From Acidobacteriota bacterium (GTDB taxonomy: Bacteria; Acidobacteriota; UBA6911; RPQK01; JAJDTT01), in NCBI GenBank assembly GCA_965217775.1, contig CBDCJH010000002.1:5888001-5952000 (forward strand): 64,000 nt of DNA, in the 5' to 3' direction. Each line of letters begins with the position of its first letter. Within the stretch, counting starts at the first letter, position 1. Under the pieces are notes generated by a model. The model ran no database searches, had not been told where the DNA came from, and saw only the letters and a list, made by a program, of their open reading frames with translations. Made by a program: the position numbers and the translations under genes. Shown here piece after piece: positions 15,045-49,907 of this stretch.

Positions 15045-15121
15045 CCGGCCCGGATTCTATCGCCGGAGGGGTTGCCGGAACAACTCCCGCAAGGGGTTCC
15101 CCGGGATCGCCAATCGTTACC

Positions 15122-17656: not shown

Positions 17657-17896
17657 CCCGCATTTCTCCCCAGGGGGCGTGACGATCGCGCAGGATTTTC
17701 GCCCTCAGCGCGTGCTCGCGACCGAGAGCGTAGTGGTGACTACGTTTGAGGGAGCATGTGCGCGCTGAGGGCGAAAAGACCAGCGAGCGCGCGCCCAGCG
17801 CAGTCGGTCCCGGAGAAACCTTGGAAAAATTCGCGTAAATGCTCAAAAACAGATTATTTTTCATCATTCGCGTAGCGACCTGGTGAGAAATGCGGG
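17657..17896. mobile_element. MITE-B, long form (240 bp)
   Basis: TIRs CCCGCATTTCTCCCCAGG / CCTGGTGAGAAATGCGGG; internal 17-bp inverted repeat; homologous to 32099-32228 and 35498-35607. Confidence 0.85.
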
Positions 17897-19350
17897 CTAG
17901 CCAGATCCTGCGGGTGGCTCCGGACCAGTTCCAGCATGGCGTCCCGGTCCGGCTCCCGGCCCGTCCAGGCCGAGAACTGGAGCGCCGCCTGCTCTACGAA
18001 CATCTCCATTCCCGAGATGGTTCCAATGCCCTGACCAGCCGCCAACTTCAGGAGCTTCGTCTCCTCCGGCTGGTAGACCAGATCGTAGACCCATTCGAAA
18101 CGCAGGTCCGGCTCTGCCAGCAGCGAGGCGTCCACGTCGGGGGACTGGCCCACCGGAGTGGTGTTGACGCAGAGAAAAGCGGAATCGGGAAGTTCCGGGA
18201 GCAAGGTATGGGCACAGGCGTATCGGCTTGCGAACCGCGCAACCCGCTCCGGACTGCGTCCGGCTACCGTCACCCGCGCTCCGTGGCCGATCAAGGCCTC
18301 CATCACCGTGTGAGCGACGCCGCCGTTTCCCAAGACCAGAGCATCCTTTCCTCGAATGGGTGTCCTGGAGAGAAGTGGCTGCAGGAACCCGCGATAGTCC
18401 GTGTTCAATCCCTCCCACCGGCCGGCTTTGCGCACCAGCGTGTTGATGGCGGGCGCCGCGGCCGTGTCCCGGGAAACCAGGGCGGCGGCATCCTGCTTGA
18501 ACGGCAGCGTCACACTGAACCCCTTGAAGGAAAGACGGCTGCTTTCCAGGTAGCGGAACCACGGCTCCAGCTCGTCCAGCCGGATCGGGAGATAGAGCCG
18601 GCGGTCGAGATCGTGTCGCCTGAAGAGCTGATTATGGATCCAGGGAGATCTGGAGTGAGCCACCGGATTCCCCAGAACAGCGTACAGCTCGGGGGCCTGA
18701 TTCCAGGAATCGAGCCGGTAGAGATCCACCGCGGTTTCCAGGCTGAATTGACCTGGGGCCGTTCCCTCGCCCTCTTCCTCCGCCACGAAAGTCCAGGCGT
18801 TCCCCAGGAACGCCCCCAAAGCCCGGGAGGGCTGGCCGAAGTCCCCCATGCCCAGCAGCACGTATGCTGCCCCCTGGGGGACCGATTCCATCCAGCTCAA
18901 CAGGGTCACCAACTCCCGGGTGGAAGAGACCATCACGGCGATCTTGACCACATCGCCCTTCAAGGCGTCGAGTCTGGCGTAGAGCCGGTTCAGATCTCCG
19001 GGAAAGGTGTCGAAGGAGTGGAAAGAACGGATCAGTCGTGTCGTGTCGGGGAAGGGCGGGAGTTCCCGGACGTCATGTTCGACGTCCACCCAATGGAATC
19101 CGCTCCTTGCGGCCTCCAAGAGCAGGTTCAATCGATCCGCTTCCGGACCGGCATAACTCCCCCCCTCGCGCGGGGGGCGGCAAGTGGCGATGAACTCGGT
19201 CCGGGTTCCGGCCGGCAGGGGTGGGACTTGAGGTGTGGAAAGGCTATCCAGACGGCATTCGATGAGAGCCACCCGGCCCGCATATCGATGAACCTTTTCC
19301 AGCAGGCGCGACGGCGATTCCTCGCCCAGGGCGAGACAGAGTTTGGGCAT
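17854..19350 (-). CDS. aroE: Bifunctional type I 3-dehydroquinate dehydratase / shikimate dehydrogenase (AroDE)
   Basis: IECRLD, SFH, VVKIA, TAPGQ (AroD); GNPVAHSRSP, SVTLPFK, NTD, LGNGG, DLVY (AroE). Confidence 0.92.
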   Translation of the reverse strand: MPKLCLALGEESPSRLLEKVHRYAGRVALIECRLDSLSTPQVPPLPAGTRTEFIATCRPPREGGSYAGPEADRLNLLLEAARSGFHWVDVEHDVRELPPFPDTTRLIRSFHSFDTFPGDLNRLYARLDALKGDVVKIAVMVSSTRELVTLLSWMESVPQGAAYVLLGMGDFGQPSRALGAFLGNAWTFVAEEEGEGTAPGQFSLETAVDLYRLDSWNQAPELYAVLGNPVAHSRSPWIHNQLFRRHDLDRRLYLPIRLDELEPWFRYLESSRLSFKGFSVTLPFKQDAAALVSRDTAAAPAINTLVRKAGRWEGLNTDYRGFLQPLLSRTPIRGKDALVLGNGGVAHTVMEALIGHGARVTVAGRSPERVARFASRYACAHTLLPELPDSAFLCVNTTPVGQSPDVDASLLAEPDLRFEWVYDLVYQPEETKLLKLAAGQGIGTISGMEMFVEQAALQFSAWTGREPDRDAMLELVRSHPQDLASPHFSPGRYANDEK

Positions 19351-32098: not shown

Positions 32099-32228
32099 CC
32101 CGCATTTCTCACCAGCGAGCGCGCGCCCAGCGCAGTCTGTCCCGGAGAAACCTTGGCAAAATTCGCGTAAACGCTCAAAAACAGATTATTTTTCATCACA
32201 CGCGTAGCGACCTGGTGAGAAATGCGGG
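32099..32228. mobile_element. MITE-B short form (130 bp) with TTAG target duplication
   Basis: Perfect TIR CCCGCATTTCTCACCAG / CTGGTGAGAAATGCGGG; TTAG at 32095-32098 and 32229-32232. Confidence 0.9.
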
Positions 32229-32807
32229 TTAGAGATCTTCGTATCTCCAACCATTGACCAAGTCCATGGCCCGCAAACAACCCTGGGTCAAAATCGTATC
32301 GACACCCAGGACCGCACGGTCCAATACGGAGTCCAGTACCAGACGCTCATCTCCGGAGAAGGGGGAAAGCAGATAGTCGGTCAGATCGCCTTTCACCGAG
32401 TCGCCGCCCACTCCGATTCGCAACCGGGGAATCTGTTTCGTTCCCACCATTCGAATGATCGATTCCATGCCCTTCTGTCCACCCGAACTGCCGGAACGCC
32501 GGACTCGCAATCGTCCCAACGGCAGCTGAACCTCGTCGTAGACCACCAGGAGCTCCTCAGGATCGACGCCATATTGAACAAGGAGCGAGCGAACCGCCAC
32601 CCCACTGAGATTCATGTAGGTTTGCGGTTTTGCCAGAATCAGGGATCCGCTCTCGCGCTCGACCCGGCAGACTCGAGACTGGCCGGCGGCGGGACCGAAC
32701 CGGGCGGCGCTCAAATCCGCCAAGCGGTCGACCAGCATGAACCCCGCGTTGTGTCGGGTCGCTGCGTACCGGCGGCCCGGGTTGCCCAGCCCAACGACCA
32801 GAAACAC
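32229..32807 (-). CDS. pth: Peptidyl-tRNA hydrolase
   Basis: VGLGNPG..TRHNAGF, KPQTYMNLSG, RLRIGVG. Confidence 0.95.
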   Translation of the reverse strand: MFLVVGLGNPGRRYAATRHNAGFMLVDRLADLSAARFGPAAGQSRVCRVERESGSLILAKPQTYMNLSGVAVRSLLVQYGVDPEELLVVYDEVQLPLGRLRVRRSGSSGGQKGMESIIRMVGTKQIPRLRIGVGGDSVKGDLTDYLLSPFSGDERLVLDSVLDRAVLGVDTILTQGCLRAMDLVNGWRYEDL

Positions 32808-35483: not shown

Positions 35484-35497
35484 TCAGACCATGGAAT

Positions 35498-35607
35498 GAG
35501 CGCGCCCAGCGCAGTCAGTCGCCGACAGACCTTGGAAATAGCCGAGTAAATGATGAAAAACAAACGCTTTTTCATCATAAGCATAGCGGCCTGGTGAGAA
35601 ATTCGGG
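35498..35607. mobile_element. Divergent truncated MITE-B copy
   Basis: gagcgcgcccagcgcagtc...cctggtgagaaattcggg. Confidence 0.75.
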
Positions 35608-35638
35608 CTGGTGGATTTCCCGCGACGGCTGCCGCAGA

Positions 35639-42700: not shown

Positions 42701-43540
42701 GTGAAGGATTTCCTGGAACGGCTGTTGGGTCTGAAGGTCTCCGAGGCCCAAATGGAGGGGCCGCGAGACCCATATAACATCTATGAATGGGATCTCGACG
42801 ACCGGAGGCCGTTGGTGGTCGCCGCCATCCTGGCCATCCTCTTTCACGCCGTTTTACTGCTGATGGTCTTCCCCTCGTTCGGCAGGACGGTCCTGGTTCC
42901 GACGCAGCAGGTCCTGGTACTCAAAAACCTGGCGAAGCCGGCGGCTCTCGCCGGAGGCGGTGACCTGCCCAAGGCGACTCCGCCCAAACCCCAGCCGGTG
43001 CGGCCGAAACCCAAGCCGGTTCTGGTTCCCATCCCCGATCCAACTCCCAGAGACCCCGAACCCATTCGCAAGGAGGAACTGGAAGACATCCCCCAGGTCC
43101 TCAAGCAGATCGTCGCGGAATTGAACCTGGACGATATCCAGGCTCCGCCGGGTCGTCCGGGCCGGGGCGGTCAGGGTGAGAGCCGGGGCGAGGGCACGGG
43201 AACCGGACCGCTTGCCGGCTCGGGACCAGCGGCCGGAGACGGTAGCGGCATCTATCGATACGGGAGCGGAGTCACCAACCCCGTCCCCATCGTTCAAACG
43301 ACTCCCAGTTACACCGACGCCGCCATCAAAGCCAAGGTTCAGGGCGTGGTCTGGCTACAGGCCATCATCCGGAAGGACGGCAACGTCGACAGCTTCAAGG
43401 TCATTCGGGGATTGGGCCACGGATTGGAAGAACAGGCCATCCAGGAGATCGCCACCAACTGGCGCTTTCGACCCGGAATGCTCAACGGGAGTCCAGTGGA
43501 CGTCCTGGCGACCATCGAAGTCCAGTTCAACCTGAGATAG
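42701..43540 (+). CDS. TonB-family energy transducer
   Basis: TM helix with His, Pro/Lys-rich linker, PSYTDAAIKAKVQGVV..WRFRPG. Confidence 0.88.
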   Translation: MKDFLERLLGLKVSEAQMEGPRDPYNIYEWDLDDRRPLVVAAILAILFHAVLLLMVFPSFGRTVLVPTQQVLVLKNLAKPAALAGGGDLPKATPPKPQPVRPKPKPVLVPIPDPTPRDPEPIRKEELEDIPQVLKQIVAELNLDDIQAPPGRPGRGGQGESRGEGTGTGPLAGSGPAAGDGSGIYRYGSGVTNPVPIVQTTPSYTDAAIKAKVQGVVWLQAIIRKDGNVDSFKVIRGLGHGLEEQAIQEIATNWRFRPGMLNGSPVDVLATIEVQFNLR

Positions 43541-43571
43541 GCCAACGAGACTGGGTTGAAAAGGGATTATC

Positions 43572-43960
43572 ATGCTCGACACGCTTATGGCAGCCGATCA
43601 ACTCACTGCCGCAGGCGTCGAATCCCGCGCAGGCTAAACAGCCCGTGGTAAAAAGTCATCACGGCATTCGACCGTCCCTGCATCCCGGCGGACCGCGTTG
43701 CGATTCGGTCACAGACTCACGGTATGCGCCCTCATCGCGCCTTGTCCGGCGGGCGCAGGAACGGTCTCGGTGCTCGCGGGACTTTCACCACGGACGGTAA
43801 AGCCATTGTGGCTTTGTTTCGCTCCAGTGAAGAGGCTGCCGTCACTCGGACCGAACTGGAAGTGGCGTTGGCCCAACTGGAAACCAGGCTCTACAGGGCA
43901 CTCCTCGTGCAGACTTTCACCATTGGCGGGTTGGTTGTCGCCTTGCTCAAGCTCCTGTGA
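43572..43960 (+). pseudogene. DUF1640/CCDC90-like small coiled-coil membrane protein interrupted by MITE-A
   Basis: MLDTLMAADQLTAAGVES | MITE | KAIVALFRSSEEAAVTRTELEVALAQLETRL..LVVALLKLL. Confidence 0.75.
43639..43797 (-). mobile_element. MITE-A full copy (159 bp) with TAAA target duplication
   Basis: TAAA at 43635-43638 and 43798-43801. Confidence 0.92.
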
Positions 43961-43994
43961 GGGGTCTTTTCCGCAATCCGGTTGGGGGGATCCA

Positions 43995-44038
43995 TAAGGG
44001 TTGCCCCGACGAAGGGCAACCACAAGGGTTGCCCCGAC
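43995..44038. repeat. REP-like GGGCAACCACAAGGGTTGCCCC units (1.5 copies)
   Basis: aagggttgccccgacg occurs twice; palindromic GGGCAACC..GGTTGCCC. Confidence 0.7.
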
Positions 44039-44069
44039 GCCATCTTATCCCAGTATAATTCCGGCTCTT

Positions 44070-46841
44070 GTGGGTGAAAAACTCGACCTGAAAGGAACCA
44101 TCAACCTTCCCAGAACCCGTTTCCGGATGAAGGCGAATCTGCCCGTTCTGGAGCCGCGGATTCTAAAAACTTGGGAGGAGTCGGGGATTTACGGGAAGAT
44201 CCGCGAGTCGCGGAAGGGCCGGCCCCTCTTCATCCTTCACGACGGCCCCCCCTACGCCAACGGCCATCTCCACGTGGGACACGCAATGAACAAGATCCTC
44301 AAGGATCTCATTGTCCGTTCCAAGACCATGGAGGGTTACGATTGTCCTTACGTGCCGGGGTGGGACTGCCATGGGCTGCCCATCGAGATCCAGGTCATGA
44401 ACCGAAAGCGGGCCGACCTGGACCCGTTGGAAGTGCGCCGGCGATGCCGCCGGCACGCCGGCAAGTTCGTGCGCATCCAGGGGGAAGAGTTCCGCCGCTT
44501 GGGTGTCACGGGAGATTGGACCGCGCCCTACCTGACCATGAGCCGTTCCTATGAAGCCGAGACGGCTCGGTTCCTGGGTGATTTCGTCCGTCGGGGAAAC
44601 GTTTACAAGGGTCTGAAGCCGGTTCATTGGTGCATTCACTGCGAGACGGCTCTGGCCGAGGCCGAAGTGGAGTATTCGGAACATGTCAGCCCCTCGGTCT
44701 ACGTCCGGTTTCCGGTGACGGGAGGACTTCACGGGGTGGATGTCGGGGCCCGGCCCGTCTCGGTTCTGATCTGGACCACGACCCCTTGGACCCTCCCCGC
44801 CAACCTGGGTCTCTGCTTTCATCCCGACTTCGAATACGCGTTGTTGGAAACCGGGGACGACGTTTTCATCCTGGCTGCCGATCTGGTTCCCCGCGTCTCC
44901 AAAGAGTGTGATTTGGGCGACTATCGGATCCTGGGACGGCTCCGGGGAGCCGCCCTCGGCGGTCTCGAGTGCCGTCACCCATGGATTCCGCGCCGGTCCG
45001 CGGTCGTCTTCGGAAATCACGTCACCCTGGATCAGGGCACCGGAGTGGTTCATACCGCGCCCGGACACGGAGAAGAGGACTACCGTCTGGGGGTCGACAA
45101 CGGTCTCGAGATCTATTGTCCGGTGGATGACTCGGGCCGGTTCCTGCCGGAAGTGGCTCACTTCGGGGGCATGCCCGTGTTCGAGGCCAACCCCTCCATC
45201 AACGGCTTTATGGCCCGGGAAGGCCATCTGGTCCGGGAAGGACCGTTCCGGCACAGCTATCCTCATTGCTGGCGCTGTCACAACCCGGTCATTTTTCGCG
45301 CCACGTCCCAGTGGTTCATCAGTATGGACCGGGAAGACCTGCGCGGCCGGGCGTTGCGCGAGATATCCAGGGTGCGGTGGCTTCCCTCTTGGGGCCGGGA
45401 GCGGATCCACAACATGATCTCCAGCCGGCCCGACTGGTGCATCAGCCGGCAGAGAACCTGGGGCGTTCCAATCGTCGCCTTCTACTGCAAGATCTGCCGG
45501 AAGATCCTCTTGGAGAGCGACATCATCGAACATGTGTCTCAGGTCTTCGAGCGGGAGGGAGCCGACGCCTGGTACCGGAGGCCTGCGCCGGAGCTTCTCC
45601 CGGAAGGCACCCGTTGCGACTGTGGAAGCGAAGAATTCGAGAAAGAAAAAGACATACTGGATGTCTGGTTCGACTCGGGGGTCAGTCATCACGTGCTGCG
45701 GAATACGCCGGGACTCGACTGGCCGGCGGATCTCTACCTGGAGGGTGGAGATCAGTTCCGGGGTTGGTTTCACAGTTCCTTGCTGGTCGGAGTCGGCGTC
45801 AGCGACGGTGCTCCCTACAGGTCGGTCCTGTGCCATGGTTGGACGCTGGATGCCGACGGGAAGGCCATGTCCAAATCCAGAGGCAACGTCATTTCTCCCC
45901 AGGAGATCATCAAGCGGGACGGCGCCGAGATCTTGCGTCTCTGGGTCTCGTCCATCGACTACACCGAAGACGTCCGCCTGGGGGAAGAGATCCTTTCCCG
46001 TCTCCGGGACGCCTACCGCAAGCTGAGAAATACGAGCCGCTTCCTCTTGGGCAACCTTCACGACTTCTCTCCGGAACTGGCGGTCCCGGACGGGGAGCTG
46101 CTGGAGTTGGATCGTTGGGCTCTGGCTCACACCGCCGCCACGGCACGGCGCGTGGAGGAGGCCTACCGGAATTTCGAGTTCCACACCGTCTACCATTCCC
46201 TCTACCACTTCTGTGTGGTGGGGCTTTCCAGCTTTTATCTCGACGTTCTGAAGGATCGCCTCTACGTCTCGGCGGCCGATTCCAGAGAACGAAGGTCGGC
46301 CCAGACGGCCCTGTTCCGGATCGCGGACGCATTGGTTCGGCTGCTGGCTCCGATGCTGCCCTTTACCACAACCCAGATCTGGGAAGAACTTCACGGTCAG
46401 AATCCTCCGGCCGAGTCGGTCCACATGGCCGAGTTCTCCCGGGAACTGGACCGGTATGCGAACCTCGAGCTTCTGGAGCAATGGGAGCCGCTCCTGCAAA
46501 TTCGCAACCAGGTCAGTAAATCACTTGAGGAATGCCGGCAGGAGAAGGTCATCGGGAACTCGTTGGAGGCGACGGTCAGGATCGAGGCCGGTGCGGAGAC
46601 TTACAAGACCCTCAGCCGGTATTCGAAGGATCTGGCCTCCGTCTTCATCGTCTCCGAAGTTGAACTCGGACTGAGAGAGGACATGGCGGCGGATGAGACC
46701 GAGATCAGGGTGACCAGAACCCGGGCGGAGAAATGCGCACGGTGCTGGAATCATAGACGCTCGGTGGGGACCCATGCCGATCTCCCGCAAGTCTGCTCCC
46801 GCTGCCATTTGGTGTTGAAACAGATCGGTGCCCTCAGTTGA
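44070..46841 (+). CDS. ileS: Isoleucine--tRNA ligase (type 1)
   Basis: DGPPYANGHLHVGH, WCISRQR, AMSKS, C-terminal KCARCW..VCSRC. Confidence 0.97.
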   Translation: MGEKLDLKGTINLPRTRFRMKANLPVLEPRILKTWEESGIYGKIRESRKGRPLFILHDGPPYANGHLHVGHAMNKILKDLIVRSKTMEGYDCPYVPGWDCHGLPIEIQVMNRKRADLDPLEVRRRCRRHAGKFVRIQGEEFRRLGVTGDWTAPYLTMSRSYEAETARFLGDFVRRGNVYKGLKPVHWCIHCETALAEAEVEYSEHVSPSVYVRFPVTGGLHGVDVGARPVSVLIWTTTPWTLPANLGLCFHPDFEYALLETGDDVFILAADLVPRVSKECDLGDYRILGRLRGAALGGLECRHPWIPRRSAVVFGNHVTLDQGTGVVHTAPGHGEEDYRLGVDNGLEIYCPVDDSGRFLPEVAHFGGMPVFEANPSINGFMAREGHLVREGPFRHSYPHCWRCHNPVIFRATSQWFISMDREDLRGRALREISRVRWLPSWGRERIHNMISSRPDWCISRQRTWGVPIVAFYCKICRKILLESDIIEHVSQVFEREGADAWYRRPAPELLPEGTRCDCGSEEFEKEKDILDVWFDSGVSHHVLRNTPGLDWPADLYLEGGDQFRGWFHSSLLVGVGVSDGAPYRSVLCHGWTLDADGKAMSKSRGNVISPQEIIKRDGAEILRLWVSSIDYTEDVRLGEEILSRLRDAYRKLRNTSRFLLGNLHDFSPELAVPDGELLELDRWALAHTAATARRVEEAYRNFEFHTVYHSLYHFCVVGLSSFYLDVLKDRLYVSAADSRERRSAQTALFRIADALVRLLAPMLPFTTTQIWEELHGQNPPAESVHMAEFSRELDRYANLELLEQWEPLLQIRNQVSKSLEECRQEKVIGNSLEATVRIEAGAETYKTLSRYSKDLASVFIVSEVELGLREDMAADETEIRVTRTRAEKCARCWNHRRSVGTHADLPQVCSRCHLVLKQIGALS

Positions 46842-46899
46842 AGTCTGGGATGGTGGGAAACGATTTCTTTCGGAAGCGATTATTGCGCTGGAGAAGACG

Positions 46900-48330
46900 A
46901 TGAAACTCCTGGCGATCGGAGTGGCGGCAGTGGTGCTGGCGCTGGATCTCCTCACCAAGTGGTGGGTCAAGAACACCGCCTGGCTGCACTACTACAAGGT
47001 CATCGACGGATTCTTCACGATCCACTTCGTCCGCAACGAGGGCATTGCATTCGGCTTGTTCCATTCCAATCCATCGGCCTGGAAACCGGTGATCCTTTCT
47101 TTCCTGGCCGTCGCAGCGGCGATCATGGTGCTGTATTACATCTGGACCAGTCCTCCCGGGGAAAGAGGCGTCCAATTGTTTCTGGGGCTTCTGTTGGGAG
47201 GGATCCTGGGGAATTTCTGCGACCGGCTGTCACGTGGGTATGTCGTCGATTTTCTGGAGTTTCATTGGCAGGACCGTTTCGCTTGGCCGACCTTCAATCT
47301 GGCCGATGCCGCAATTACCTGCGGAGTCGCGGCGATTCTCTACCAGGGCTTTTTCGGAACGGGAAGCGGGGACCGGGCCGCGAACCGTCCCCGCCCGAGA
47401 AACTCCGGCACCTTGGGTGCGATTCTTCTGGCAGGTATGCTCTCGGCGCCCCTGCTGGGACAATCGTCCTCCCCCGGGGCGCTGGAAATCGTGGACCGCG
47501 TCCAGGAGCGGTACGAACAGGTCGAAAGCTTCGCCGCCGATTTTCGGCAGGTTTTCCAGTCGCAGGGGGTCTATTTCGAGAGCGACTGGGGAGAGGGGAT
47601 TCTGCTGATGAAGCGCCCTGGAAAGATGTACTGGGAATACCAGCGTCCCACCAGGAAGCTGTTCGTAGCCGACGGCAAACAGACCTTCTTCTACGTCCCC
47701 AGTGAGAATCAGGTGACGATCTCCGATCTGGACCCGGAGACCGCGGATACGCCGCTGCTTTTTCTGCTGGGACCGAAACGGATCCGGGATGATTTCCTGG
47801 TGCAATTCGAGACCGGGGAAGGGCCGTTGGACGAATCCAACCTCCTCCTTCGCTTGACGCCCATTCGGGCCCGGCCTGAATTCAGCTACCTGCTGTTGGA
47901 GTTGTCACCGAAGACTTATCTCATCCAAAGATTGTCCGTAGTCGAGCCTATCGGGAACCGGAACGACTACATCTTCAGCCGTTTCCGGGAGAACGTGAAG
48001 ATTCGAGACAAGCAGTTCCGCCTGGAGTTGCCGGACGGAGTGGAGATCATCCGAATCGGATCGAGCGCCGGTTTCAGGCCGGAGGAAGATCCCGGCCGGT
48101 CTCCCCATCGAAGTCGGCTCGTCACCGGGATGGAGAGGACAGGTACGTTAACAGCCCGTGGTGAAAGTCGTCACGGCATTCGACCGTCCCTGCATCCCGG
48201 CGGACGGCGTTGCTATCGGCTCACATACTCCCGGTATGCTCCCTCATCGCGCCTTGTCCGGCGGGCGCAGGAACGGTCTCGGTGCGCGCGAGACTTTCAC
48301 CACGGACTGTTAAGGAGAGTGCCGATTTGA
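46900..48330 (+). CDS. lspA: Fusion of lipoprotein signal peptidase II and LolA-family lipoprotein carrier, with a MITE-derived C-terminal tail
   Basis: LDLLTK, NEGIAFG, GNFCDR..VVDF, FNLAD (LspA), then FAADFRQ, KRPGKMYWEY, VADGKQTFFYVP, F..P.GVEII (LolA), with no intervening stop. Confidence 0.9.
   Translation: MKLLAIGVAAVVLALDLLTKWWVKNTAWLHYYKVIDGFFTIHFVRNEGIAFGLFHSNPSAWKPVILSFLAVAAAIMVLYYIWTSPPGERGVQLFLGLLLGGILGNFCDRLSRGYVVDFLEFHWQDRFAWPTFNLADAAITCGVAAILYQGFFGTGSGDRAANRPRPRNSGTLGAILLAGMLSAPLLGQSSSPGALEIVDRVQERYEQVESFAADFRQVFQSQGVYFESDWGEGILLMKRPGKMYWEYQRPTRKLFVADGKQTFFYVPSENQVTISDLDPETADTPLLFLLGPKRIRDDFLVQFETGEGPLDESNLLLRLTPIRARPEFSYLLLELSPKTYLIQRLSVVEPIGNRNDYIFSRFRENVKIRDKQFRLELPDGVEIIRIGSSAGFRPEEDPGRSPHRSRLVTGMERTGTLTARGESRHGIRPSLHPGGRRCYRLTYSRYAPSSRLVRRAQERSRCARDFHHGLLRRVPI
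48152..48309 (-). mobile_element. MITE-A full copy (158 bp) with TTAA target duplication, in frame within the lspA-lolA ORF
   Basis: TTAA at 48148-48151 and 48310-48313. Confidence 0.92.
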
Positions 48331-49331
48331 GCGAGATTCGGGCGAACATAACGGCCGTGGGGATGTACGTTCCGGAGAAGCGCGTCACGAACCAGGACTT
48401 GAGCCGGGTTCTGGACACTTCCGACCAGTGGATTCGAGAGCGAACCGGGATCTCGGAACGCCGGATTGCCGGCAAGGACGAGGCCAACAGCGACCTCTCG
48501 GTTCGAGCCATCCAAAACGCTTTGGAAGGCACGCCGCATCGCCCTGAAGACATCGACCTCATCATTGTCACCACCGTCACTCCGGACATGATGTTTCCTT
48601 CGACCGCCTGCCGGATCCAGGAAAAGATCGGGGCCAGGAACGCGTGGGGATTCGATCTGTCCGGCGCCTGCTCCGGGTTCCTTTTCGGCCTCTCGACGGC
48701 TGCGCAGTTCATTCGGACGGGAACCCACAAGAAGGTCCTGGTGGTGGGAACCGACGTGATGAGCTCCATCATCGACTTCAAGGACCGGGCCACCTGCGTT
48801 CTCTTCGGAGACGGCGCCGGGGCCGTTCTCCTGGAGCCCACCGAGGAGGAGGAGACGGGCATCCTGGACACGACCCTGGGGTGCGACGGGTCAGGAGGGA
48901 AATTCCTGTTCATGCCCGCCGGAGGGAGTCACCGCCCCGCGAGCCACGAAACCGTGAACAAGCGAATGCACTATGTCCATCAGGACGGCAGGAACGTCTT
49001 CAAGTTCGCGGTCCGGGTCATGTGCCAAACTTCGGTCGGATTGCTCCGGCGAAACGGCATTCCCACCGATGAGCTGTCGCTTTTCGTCCCCCACCAGGCC
49101 AACCTGCGAATCATCAAGTCGTCCATGACGCGCCTGAAATTGAGAGAGGAGCAGGTTGCGGTCAACATCGACCGCTATGCCAACACCACGGCGGCGACCA
49201 TCCCCACCTGTCTGGCCGAAGCTCACCGGCAGGGACGATTGAAGAAGCGGGACAAGATCCTCATGGTCTCCTTCGGAGCGGGATTCACCTGGGGGGGGAT
49301 TCTTCTCGGCTGGGGAATGGATCCGCCTTAG
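48327..49331 (+). CDS. fabH: 3-oxoacyl-ACP synthase III
   Basis: DTSDQWIRERTGI, GACSGF, LFGDGAGA, PHQAN, ANT, FGAGFTWG; AAGGAG RBS plus TTG. Confidence 0.95.
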   Translation: MSEIRANITAVGMYVPEKRVTNQDLSRVLDTSDQWIRERTGISERRIAGKDEANSDLSVRAIQNALEGTPHRPEDIDLIIVTTVTPDMMFPSTACRIQEKIGARNAWGFDLSGACSGFLFGLSTAAQFIRTGTHKKVLVVGTDVMSSIIDFKDRATCVLFGDGAGAVLLEPTEEEETGILDTTLGCDGSGGKFLFMPAGGSHRPASHETVNKRMHYVHQDGRNVFKFAVRVMCQTSVGLLRRNGIPTDELSLFVPHQANLRIIKSSMTRLKLREEQVAVNIDRYANTTAATIPTCLAEAHRQGRLKKRDKILMVSFGAGFTWGGILLGWGMDPP

Positions 49332-49382
49332 GCCGCATTTCTTGGCGGGCGTATCTCCAGTGAGATACTCGGGCTGATGGCG

Positions 49383-49907
49383 TCAGATGAAGAGTTCCTC
49401 TTCAGGCGACTTGGTTCCGGTCTTTTTCCCTCGCCGCCCCAGTAGAAACGATAGTCCCGACCGGACCCCTTTGAAGAAGGAACCGATTTCCAGAATGGGT
49501 CTCAAGACGTCCTTCTGAATCACTTCGCTGGTCTGCTCGAACTTTTCGACGGTGTCGGTGACCAGGCCGTCCACTCTCTGGGCCTGATCGTGGCCCAGCC
49601 GAATCACTTCCTTCACCAGGCCATCCACCTCTTCGGTGGTTCTTCGGAAAGCGCCCATTACGAAGCGGACATTGTCGTTGAACTCGTTGCCGAGCTGCCG
49701 CACCGGCTCCAGACTCTCGGACACTTGGGTCAATTTGCTGCTGACGGACTCGACAGCCGCTTGAAGTTTCCGGGTCTCCTGCTGCAGTTCCTCGGCCATC
49801 TTTCGAACCGTCTGGGCCGCCCGCCACACGGCTAGGGCTTGAAGGGTCATGGAGAGGGCGGTAATGCCGATGAACAGGATGAGCAGGAGTTCAGCGCTCA
49901 AGTGCAT
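49383..49907 (-). CDS. DUF948/YoxC-like membrane-anchored helical protein
   Basis: N-terminal TM followed by an amphipathic coiled coil; adjacent to YtxH. Confidence 0.65.
   Translation of the reverse strand: MHLSAELLLILFIGITALSMTLQALAVWRAAQTVRKMAEELQQETRKLQAAVESVSSKLTQVSESLEPVRQLGNEFNDNVRFVMGAFRRTTEEVDGLVKEVIRLGHDQAQRVDGLVTDTVEKFEQTSEVIQKDVLRPILEIGSFFKGVRSGLSFLLGRRGKKTGTKSPEEELFI

Follow-up and report, generated by a model that had tools for sequence, protein, structure and literature searches.

The lspA-lolA Fusion Gene

The lipoprotein signal peptidase LspA and the periplasmic lipoprotein carrier LolA are encoded by a single gene in an Acidobacteriota bacterium (GenBank assembly GCA_965217775.1), in the 64,000-nucleotide (nt) stretch of contig CBDCJH010000002.1 that was analysed here and is referred to as the window. 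The lspA-lolA fusion gene is real, conserved and lineage-specific, and is no product of assembly error. In model Gram-negative bacteria the two proteins are essential, and both are antibiotic targets; to our knowledge they have always been treated as separate proteins that act at different steps of the pathway.

The gene lies in a single forward-strand frame that the list of open reading frames (ORFs) and the translation show to be devoid of stops from 46828 to the TGA at 48328-48330. The start codon is likely the ATG at 46900, which matches the N-termini of relatives and follows a GGAGAAG sequence 6-12 nt upstream, giving a product of 476 amino acids (aa). An original prediction, made from the letters of the window, had described LspA, a basic linker, a hydrophobic stretch and LolA in one ORF, and the Pfam and NCBIfam matches and the coordinates agree with this description. 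It had placed the end of the ORF at 48060, which is only the approximate end of the LolA domain (aa 384, or nt 48051); the ORF itself stops at 48330. The absence of a stop and a start between the two halves, also part of that prediction, was borne out: there is no in-frame stop at the junction, and no ATG, GTG or TTG from LspA helix 4 up to a TTG at 47413. The gene and its parts are as follows:

46900..48330, forward strand: lspA-lolA fusion ORF, 476 codons plus TGA (ORF calling, translation, both domain models, relatives)
46921..47352, forward strand: LspA (signal peptidase II, peptidase A8) domain, aa 8-151 (Pfam, AlphaFold2 (AF2) model, Foldseek, Protein Data Bank (PDB) search)
47221..47223, forward strand: Asp108 codon, GAC, in the GNxxDR motif (D108 and N105 invariant in 76 fused sequences)
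47305..47307, forward strand: Asp136 codon, GAT, in the FNxAD motif (N133, A135 and D136 invariant in 76 fused sequences)
47359..47412, forward strand: putative cytoplasmic linker, aa 154-171, with DRAANRPRPRN as its basic n-region, modelled as disordered (predicted local distance difference test score (pLDDT) <50 for residues 155-170)
47413..47460, forward strand: junction hydrophobic segment L172-G187, LGAILLAGMLSAPLLG, a former LolA signal peptide (h- and c-regions) that is now internal
47479..48051, forward strand: LolA domain (periplasmic lipoprotein carrier), aa 194-384 (TIGR00547, Foldseek, confident AF2 model)

The LspA and LolA Domains

Compared with stand-alone LspA (5dir, 6ryo/6ryp, 9emz), the N-terminal 153 residues of the fusion protein make up a complete four-helix LspA with invariant motifs. 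Residues 8-151 matched the Pfam domain Peptidase_A8 (PF01252) with an E-value of 8.3e-38 and a score of 130.2 bits (cut-off 25), and the NCBIfam equivalog model for lspA, TIGR00077, was matched at 113.5 bits (cut-off 73.95). An AF2 model built on a 76-sequence alignment (mean pLDDT 82.5; predicted template modelling score (pTM) 0.54) placed the LspA helices at aa 2-25, 62-83, 89-112 and 134-152. With Foldseek, the LspA part could be superimposed on 5dir_A with a target-normalised template modelling score (TM-score) of 0.86 and a root-mean-square deviation of 2.3, and a sequence search of the PDB gave E-values of 8.9e-20 to 5dir and 6.2e-20 to 9emz. D108 in GNxxDR and D136 in FNxAD are the first and second catalytic aspartates of LspA, respectively. 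The fused LspA is predicted to cleave diacylglyceryl-prolipoproteins before the lipobox cysteine, as other members of its family do, and it is the sole Peptidase_A8 match in this genome, which is 97.9% complete. LspA structures have four helices, with both the N- and the C-terminus in the cytoplasm. In the stand-alone enzyme the cytoplasmic C-terminus is short, whereas in the fusion it runs on through a basic loop and a fifth hydrophobic segment to a presumably periplasmic domain.

That domain is LolA. The Pfam model (PF03548) matched aa 207-375 with an E-value of 1.5e-27 and 96.8 bits (cut-off 23.6), while the NCBIfam equivalog model TIGR00547 scored 124.3 bits (cut-off 112). The LolA fold is an open beta-barrel with a helical lid, and Foldseek matched the domain to 6f3z_B, 2w7q_A, 4ki3, 8orn_A and 1iwl with E-values of 1e-13 to 1e-16 and target-normalised TM-scores of 0.78-0.85 (0.80-0.85 for the first four). 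A block of LolA residues is invariant in the 76 fused sequences, and the block MKRPGKMYWEY is invariant or nearly so. Residues 194-384 thus share the fold of stand-alone LolA (1iwl/1ua8, 2w7q, 4ki3, 8orn, 6f3z) and pass the equivalog cut-off, but the fused LolA lacks both a start codon and an N-terminal signal peptide of its own and relies on an internal export signal behind a whole membrane enzyme. It also carries, in this genome, an accidental tail of 92 residues that stand-alone LolA lacks (described below). The fused LolA is predicted to take lipoproteins from LolCDE and deliver them to the outer membrane.

No gene of the genome other than the fusion encodes a strong, canonical LolA. One further protein, of 234 aa, is weakly LolA-like (L014 1360-2064, in G000:C2 at about 5315260-5315964) and scored 29 bits against Pfam LolA. 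It begins with a signal peptide and lacks a lipobox, its gene adjoins an ATP-binding cassette (ABC) transporter ATPase gene on the opposite strand, and it may be a paralog among the sorting proteins.

Distribution and Conservation

Residues 1-390 were searched against 76 genomes of the order, 73 of which gave a match at E ≤ 1e-20. The two halves are fused in 34 of these 73 genomes, comprising every matched member of three families (f1, which includes the present genome, 15/15; f6, 16/16; f12, 3/3). In 31 fused genomes there is one unbroken match from residue 1 to about 385, while in G073 the match is a contig-end fragment covering residues 79-385. G064 and G065 are fused and have one stop each, at the end of a fused 377-aa frame, and G040 gave two matches within one 486-aa frame with a long linker, which was confirmed as fused at the ORF level. 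The 39 genomes in which the genes are not fused belong to 13 other families: 34 have two separate matches, two have in-frame stops between the halves (G021, G041), and the remaining three have a single half at a contig end (G054, G055, G059). One unpublished genome among the 39, G016, enters the genome tallies only. Inspection of the ORFs at 41 loci gave 23 fused and 18 split; this set included the loci of 38 relatives, of which 21 were fused, and G064 and G065 were fused besides. Separate genes in close relatives would have spoken against the original prediction. Relatives with separate genes do exist, in other families only, and the close relatives are all fused.

In protein databases, both Pfam domains were present in about 94 of 105 clusters (90% identity) at E ≤ 1e-10, down to 41% identity. 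The named fused clusters are all from Acidobacteriota. The distance from FNxAD..I to PGxMxWEY varies from 79 to 134 residues in the 94 fused clusters and is always in frame. Among representatives at 50% identity, the best 150 included three fused forms (P0040 at full length, and the fragments P0081 and P0095), which indicates that the fused clade falls into very few clusters at this level and that the architecture is confined to one fairly narrow clade. A scan of contigs with LspA-only patterns gave 80 loci, which are the matches listed rather than a census; lolA lies beside lspA in five of them, two fused and three split, and all five are titled Acidobacteriota.

The reading frame across the junction was also recovered from independent data. 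Contigs from runs X1 and X5, from two independent studies, bridge 47215-47563 with substitutions only, and no insertion or deletion is listed in the public-run contigs before 48215. A contig of the RNA library X8 reaches from 46906, where LspA begins, to 47712, inside LolA, although such contigs cannot reveal transcript ends and RNA libraries may contain DNA. The RNA runs carry the label sponge metagenome. In nine genomes of the same genus, codons 1-385 contain no stops and no indels, and the ratio of nonsynonymous to synonymous substitution rates (dN/dS) is 0.22 in LspA and 0.14 in LolA, and 0.43 in the junction between them. To judge from these ratios, the junction is looser than both domains yet still read in the fused frame. 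A stop at the junction was thus missing wherever it was sought: in the fused loci of relatives, in the nine same-genus genomes and in the contigs from the two studies.

Origin of the Fusion

In the split relatives, lspA and lolA abut or overlap. The stop of lspA follows a short charged tail, and lolA starts with a Met of its own and goes on with an n-region, a hydrophobic core and a c-region. When fused and stand-alone proteins were aligned, the LolA signal peptides fell on the junction segment. The split pairs (e.g., G020, G024, G026 and G035) have the same gene order as the fusion and encode orthologues that are 42-64% identical to its halves, but a stop ends lspA and lolA has a Met of its own, both of which the fusion lacks, and the two genes are usually in different frames. 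In G021, G032 and G041, however, lspA and lolA share a frame and are separated by one stop (G032, G041) or three (G021). These same-frame pairs show how a single change could fuse the two genes.

The concatenated domains were used for a maximum-likelihood tree with 38 rows. In it the f1 genomes, six from genus g2 and nine from genus g1, form one starred group, and 16 of the 17 split rows fall into another (support 88/92). The fused state requires two changes on the best tree, while a single change is compatible with the well-supported branches. Since the genes of the sister families abut, and since their LolA signal peptide aligns with the junction segment, the fusion arose from a tightly abutting lspA-lolA pair through loss of the lspA stop.

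The Junction Segment

In a Sec signal peptide, the basic n-region is followed by a hydrophobic core, 7-15 residues long, and then by a polar c-region in which positions -3 and -1 are small residues. By inspection of the fused sequences, this n-h-c layout is present in the junction segment. Here, the basic DRAANRPRPRN (D158-N168) precedes the hydrophobic segment, and LGAILLAGMLSAPLLG is followed by QSSSPGA and then by the first LolA helix. Of the 76 fused sequences, 52 have a net positive charge over the ten residues ahead of the hydrophobic core, 16 are neutral there and eight are net negative. A signal peptidase I site is predicted between G187 and Q188 (nt 47460/47461), in the sequence LLG↓Q, where the arrow marks the cut. 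Position -3 is always Leu and position -1 always Gly in the 18 genus-level clusters and in 9/9 same-genus genomes, unlike positions -2 (L/S/W) and +1 (Q/E/A/K/G), which vary within the genus. Such a combination of invariant -3/-1 and variable -2/+1 positions is the pattern expected of a signal peptidase I site. In many other fused members the c-region is of the classic kind (VNA↓S, VRA↓Q, CSA↓Q, AEA↓A or SRA↓Q) and is located about nine residues ahead of the LQxxY helix, and the spacing is the same in several split LolAs. Lipoprotein-type processing of the junction was considered and rejected, as the junction of this gene has no Cys and no lipobox.

Only about eight residues separate G187 from the start of the LolA fold. 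In the PDB sequence search, residue 6 of the 182-residue E. coli LolA chain (1iwl) aligned with residue 201 of the query. If it were not cut off, LolA would be held fast at the inner membrane by so short a spacer. In the AF2 model the LolA domain is confident (residues 192-386), while the junction consists of an 11-residue helix only (171-181), at low confidence, flanked by residues 155-170 and 182-187 with pLDDT <50. The model gives no sign of a fixed LspA-LolA interface, since the pTM is modest even though both domains are individually confident.

Proposed Processing of the Fusion Protein

These features suggest to us, with slightly better than even confidence, that the junction is an internal signal peptide that is cut by signal peptidase I, releasing a soluble LolA. 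In this scheme, the whole gene would be translated as one polypeptide. The four LspA helices would enter the inner membrane and leave both ends of LspA on the cytoplasmic side, the positive loop (aa 158-168) would stay inside, and L172-G187 would insert with its N-terminus in and its C-terminus out, serving as an internal Sec signal sequence that pulls the LolA domain into the periplasm. Signal peptidase I would then cut after L185-L186-G187, so that soluble LolA would begin at Q188, while LspA would retain a fifth, C-terminal helix. The released products would work normally, LspA in prolipoprotein cleavage and LolA as the lipoprotein carrier between a LolCDE-type transporter and the outer membrane. 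The fusion has been retained in the three families. In this scheme, the orientation of the fifth segment in the membrane is inferred, and so are its cutting and the freeing of LolA. The topology argument of the original prediction, according to which the cytoplasmic C-terminus of LspA and a fifth N-in/C-out segment would put LolA in the periplasm, holds.

The gene content of the genome fits this scheme. There are two signal peptidase I genes, an Lnt gene, two copies of Lgt and a LolC/E-like gene (323.6 bits, under the cut-off of 362.45), whereas LolB was not found in the genome search. Of the lolA, lnt and lolCDE genes that the original prediction had singled out as informative, Lnt and the sub-cut-off LolC/E-like gene were thus present, and no canonical lolA other than the fused one was found. 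With a sole canonical LolA and one LspA alongside Lnt, LolC/E-like, Lgt and signal peptidase I genes, a diffusible LolA is expected. The nearest mechanistic precedent known to us is the FbcH cytochrome b-c1 precursor of Bradyrhizobium, which is reportedly split at an internal signal peptide. There, as is proposed here, a polytopic membrane protein whose C-terminus is cytoplasmic is reported to precede an internal signal sequence and a periplasmic partner that signal peptidase releases; the precursor differs in that the proteins are unrelated, and in that processing of LspA-LolA is only a proposal.

Several observations weigh against cleavage or are neutral. The best 19-residue Kyte-Doolittle window of the junction scores 1.41, essentially no lower than that of LspA helix 3 (1.43), which would allow a stable fifth helix. 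The c-regions of some fused members are poor, with a Pro in position +1 or -3, and the LLG↓Q site of this gene is acceptable rather than a classic AxA. The TTG at codon 172 is kept in 9/9 same-genus genomes, and an internal start is possible. We also applied a cleavage rule (A/G/S at -1; A/G/S/T/V/C/L/I at -3; no Pro at +1; at most 12 residues past the hydrophobic core), which proved not to discriminate: it found a site after the junction in 67 of the 76 fused sequences, and likewise after LspA helix 1 in 61 and after helix 3 in all 76. Since it matches uncleaved LspA helices too, the rule carries no weight either way.

If the junction were not cut, it would be a permanent fifth helix, with LolA tethered to LspA on the outer face of the inner membrane. 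Such a LolA would act locally, as a fixed acceptor beside LolCDE or as a holding site for fresh lipoproteins. We consider this arrangement unlikely, but far from negligible. Both the hydropathy of the junction and its uncharged run (median 19 residues) are within the range of real LspA helices, and the retention of the fusion in all 34 genomes of the three families could reflect a benefit of physical coupling. A membrane-tethered LolA is known in P0144, a 797-aa protein that combines a BlaR1-type M56 peptidase, GWxTD and LolA, and the weak LolA-like secreted paralog (L014 1360-2064) could in principle serve as the mobile carrier. However, a tether of only about eight residues is too short for LolA to reach the outer membrane, and the genome holds no other canonical LolA. 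Moreover, the segment is homologous to cleavable signal peptides, with -1 and -3 residues that are small or aliphatic and invariant in the genus, and AF2 gives no confident packing of either the segment or LolA on LspA (pTM 0.54). Outer-membrane lipoprotein trafficking through a LolA permanently anchored by LspA, with no free canonical carrier and no LolB, is slightly less likely still; it would imply a direct hand-over from signal-peptide removal to sorting, or else another periplasmic carrier. The original prediction had offered a tethered machine and a polyprotein as alternatives, with no choice between them. The homology, the n-h-c layout, the -3/-1 positions, the short spacer and the lack of a second canonical LolA lean toward the polyprotein, while the cleavage step itself is an inference.

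The retained TTG raises another possibility, namely that LolA is initiated internally at 47413, or at an equivalent codon, with a short signal peptide of its own, and that the read-through fusion is a minor product. Position 172 is Met in P0008 and Val in P0017, and a Met is found just ahead of the hydrophobic stretch in several distant fused members, where it may be a relic of the old lolA start. Nevertheless, this reading is improbable. There is no Shine-Dalgarno sequence 5-10 nt upstream of TTG 47413, whereas GGAG-type motifs precede the starts at 46900 and 48327; the product would be left with no basic n-region; and position 172 is Trp in cluster P0014. Internal initiation also leaves unexplained why the lspA stop is missing in all 34 genomes and why the linker is kept in frame at a dN/dS of 0.43. 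An error of assembly or base calling, or a recent and meaningless loss of the stop, might be suspected because the 3' tail of the ORF was lengthened by an accidental in-frame repeat insertion (see below). Such an explanation is extremely improbable and is effectively refuted by the occurrence of the fusion in 34 genomes of three families and about 94 protein clusters, by the contigs from two studies that cross the junction cleanly, by the invariance of the catalytic residues and by purifying selection.

The C-Terminal Tail and Neighbouring Genes

Past the LolA domain, the frame remains open for 92 further codons. The features in and beyond this region are:

48052..48327, forward strand: variable Arg-rich C-terminal tail, aa 385-476, outside LolA (comparison of tail lengths in the same genus)
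48141..48311, no strand assigned: palindromic repeat resembling a miniature inverted-repeat transposable element (MITE), 171 nt (57 codons), in frame in the tail (empty-site alignment, hairpin, depth)
48327..49331, forward strand: fabH (ORF; putative TTG start at 48327, with AAGGAGAG...TTGAGC kept in four genomes)

In the nine same-genus genomes, the tails are 11, 31, 31, 31, 34, 42, 44, 91 and 91 aa long (91 in the present genome). Alignment with empty sites showed that the 171-nt repeat is present here and in G006 and absent from G007 and G008. It is predicted to fold into a hairpin of -104.1 kcal/mol (z = -4.84) and has TTAA-like flanking ends, and its insertion created no stop. Another copy, 91% identical, is found at 43652-43802, upstream of ileS, so the two copies bracket ileS and lspA-lolA; partial copies in reverse orientation occur near 15119, 19464, 20271, 29972 and 41142. 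A search with the full 476-aa query gave 467 first-look candidates and 39 scored matches in this genome, and there were more copies in the same-genus genomes; the extra matches listed are all within query residues of about 380-476. The depth of the repeat in public runs is 30,000-95,000, compared to about 50-150 in its flanks. A scan of 43000-49500 gave no Rfam match. Because its length varies within the genus and a high-copy repeat has been inserted in frame, the tail is an accident of insertion and not part of the design of the protein. A separate family of 122-nt direct repeats has three copies in the window (17779-17900, 32111-32232 and 35490-35611), with 95% and 76% identity to the reference copy.

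The fusion gene is located between ileS (ORF 44001-46841) and fabH. A position of lspA downstream of ileS is a typical arrangement in bacteria. The presumed TTG start of fabH is preceded at a distance of 7 nt by a Shine-Dalgarno motif, AAGGAGAG (48312-48319), and overlaps the TGA of the fusion (48328-48330) as TTGA. Since this overlap is retained in four same-genus genomes irrespective of tail length, it suggests that fabH is translationally coupled to lolA.

Novelty and Implications

A full-text literature search at the level of listings and abstracts found no description of an LspA-LolA fusion. The part of a study on the evolution of the Lol pathway that was covered by a term search contains no mention of Acidobacteria, of a fusion or of LspA (PMC9963962; PNAS 2023). 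The fused proteins do occur in sequence databases under automatic names, "signal peptidase II" at NCBI and, for some, "lipoprotein signal peptidase/chaperone LolA" at JGI. The assertion in the original prediction that the architecture is undescribed stands for the searched literature. Taken singly, both halves are typical of their families, and the novelty lies in their combination.

Two other domain combinations were seen in the representative library. In P0144, the BlaR1-type peptidase M56 occupies aa 18-308, GWxTD aa 437-527 and LolA aa 616-782. P0133 (358 aa) has two tandem Peptidase_A8 domains and is thus an LspA-LspA duplication fusion.

A natural fusion that is the only copy of both LspA and canonical LolA in this genome, and that has been kept across three families, provides a test case for internal signal peptides and for the need for a free LolA. 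If the protein is cleaved, it would be an example of a cost-free fusion of operon neighbours, because the signal peptide would still work when internal. If it is not, the Lol pathway of this phylum would depart from the textbook. In addition, the linkage of lspA and lolA, which is conserved across the order, offers a new context for the evolution of the Lol pathway beyond Proteobacteria.

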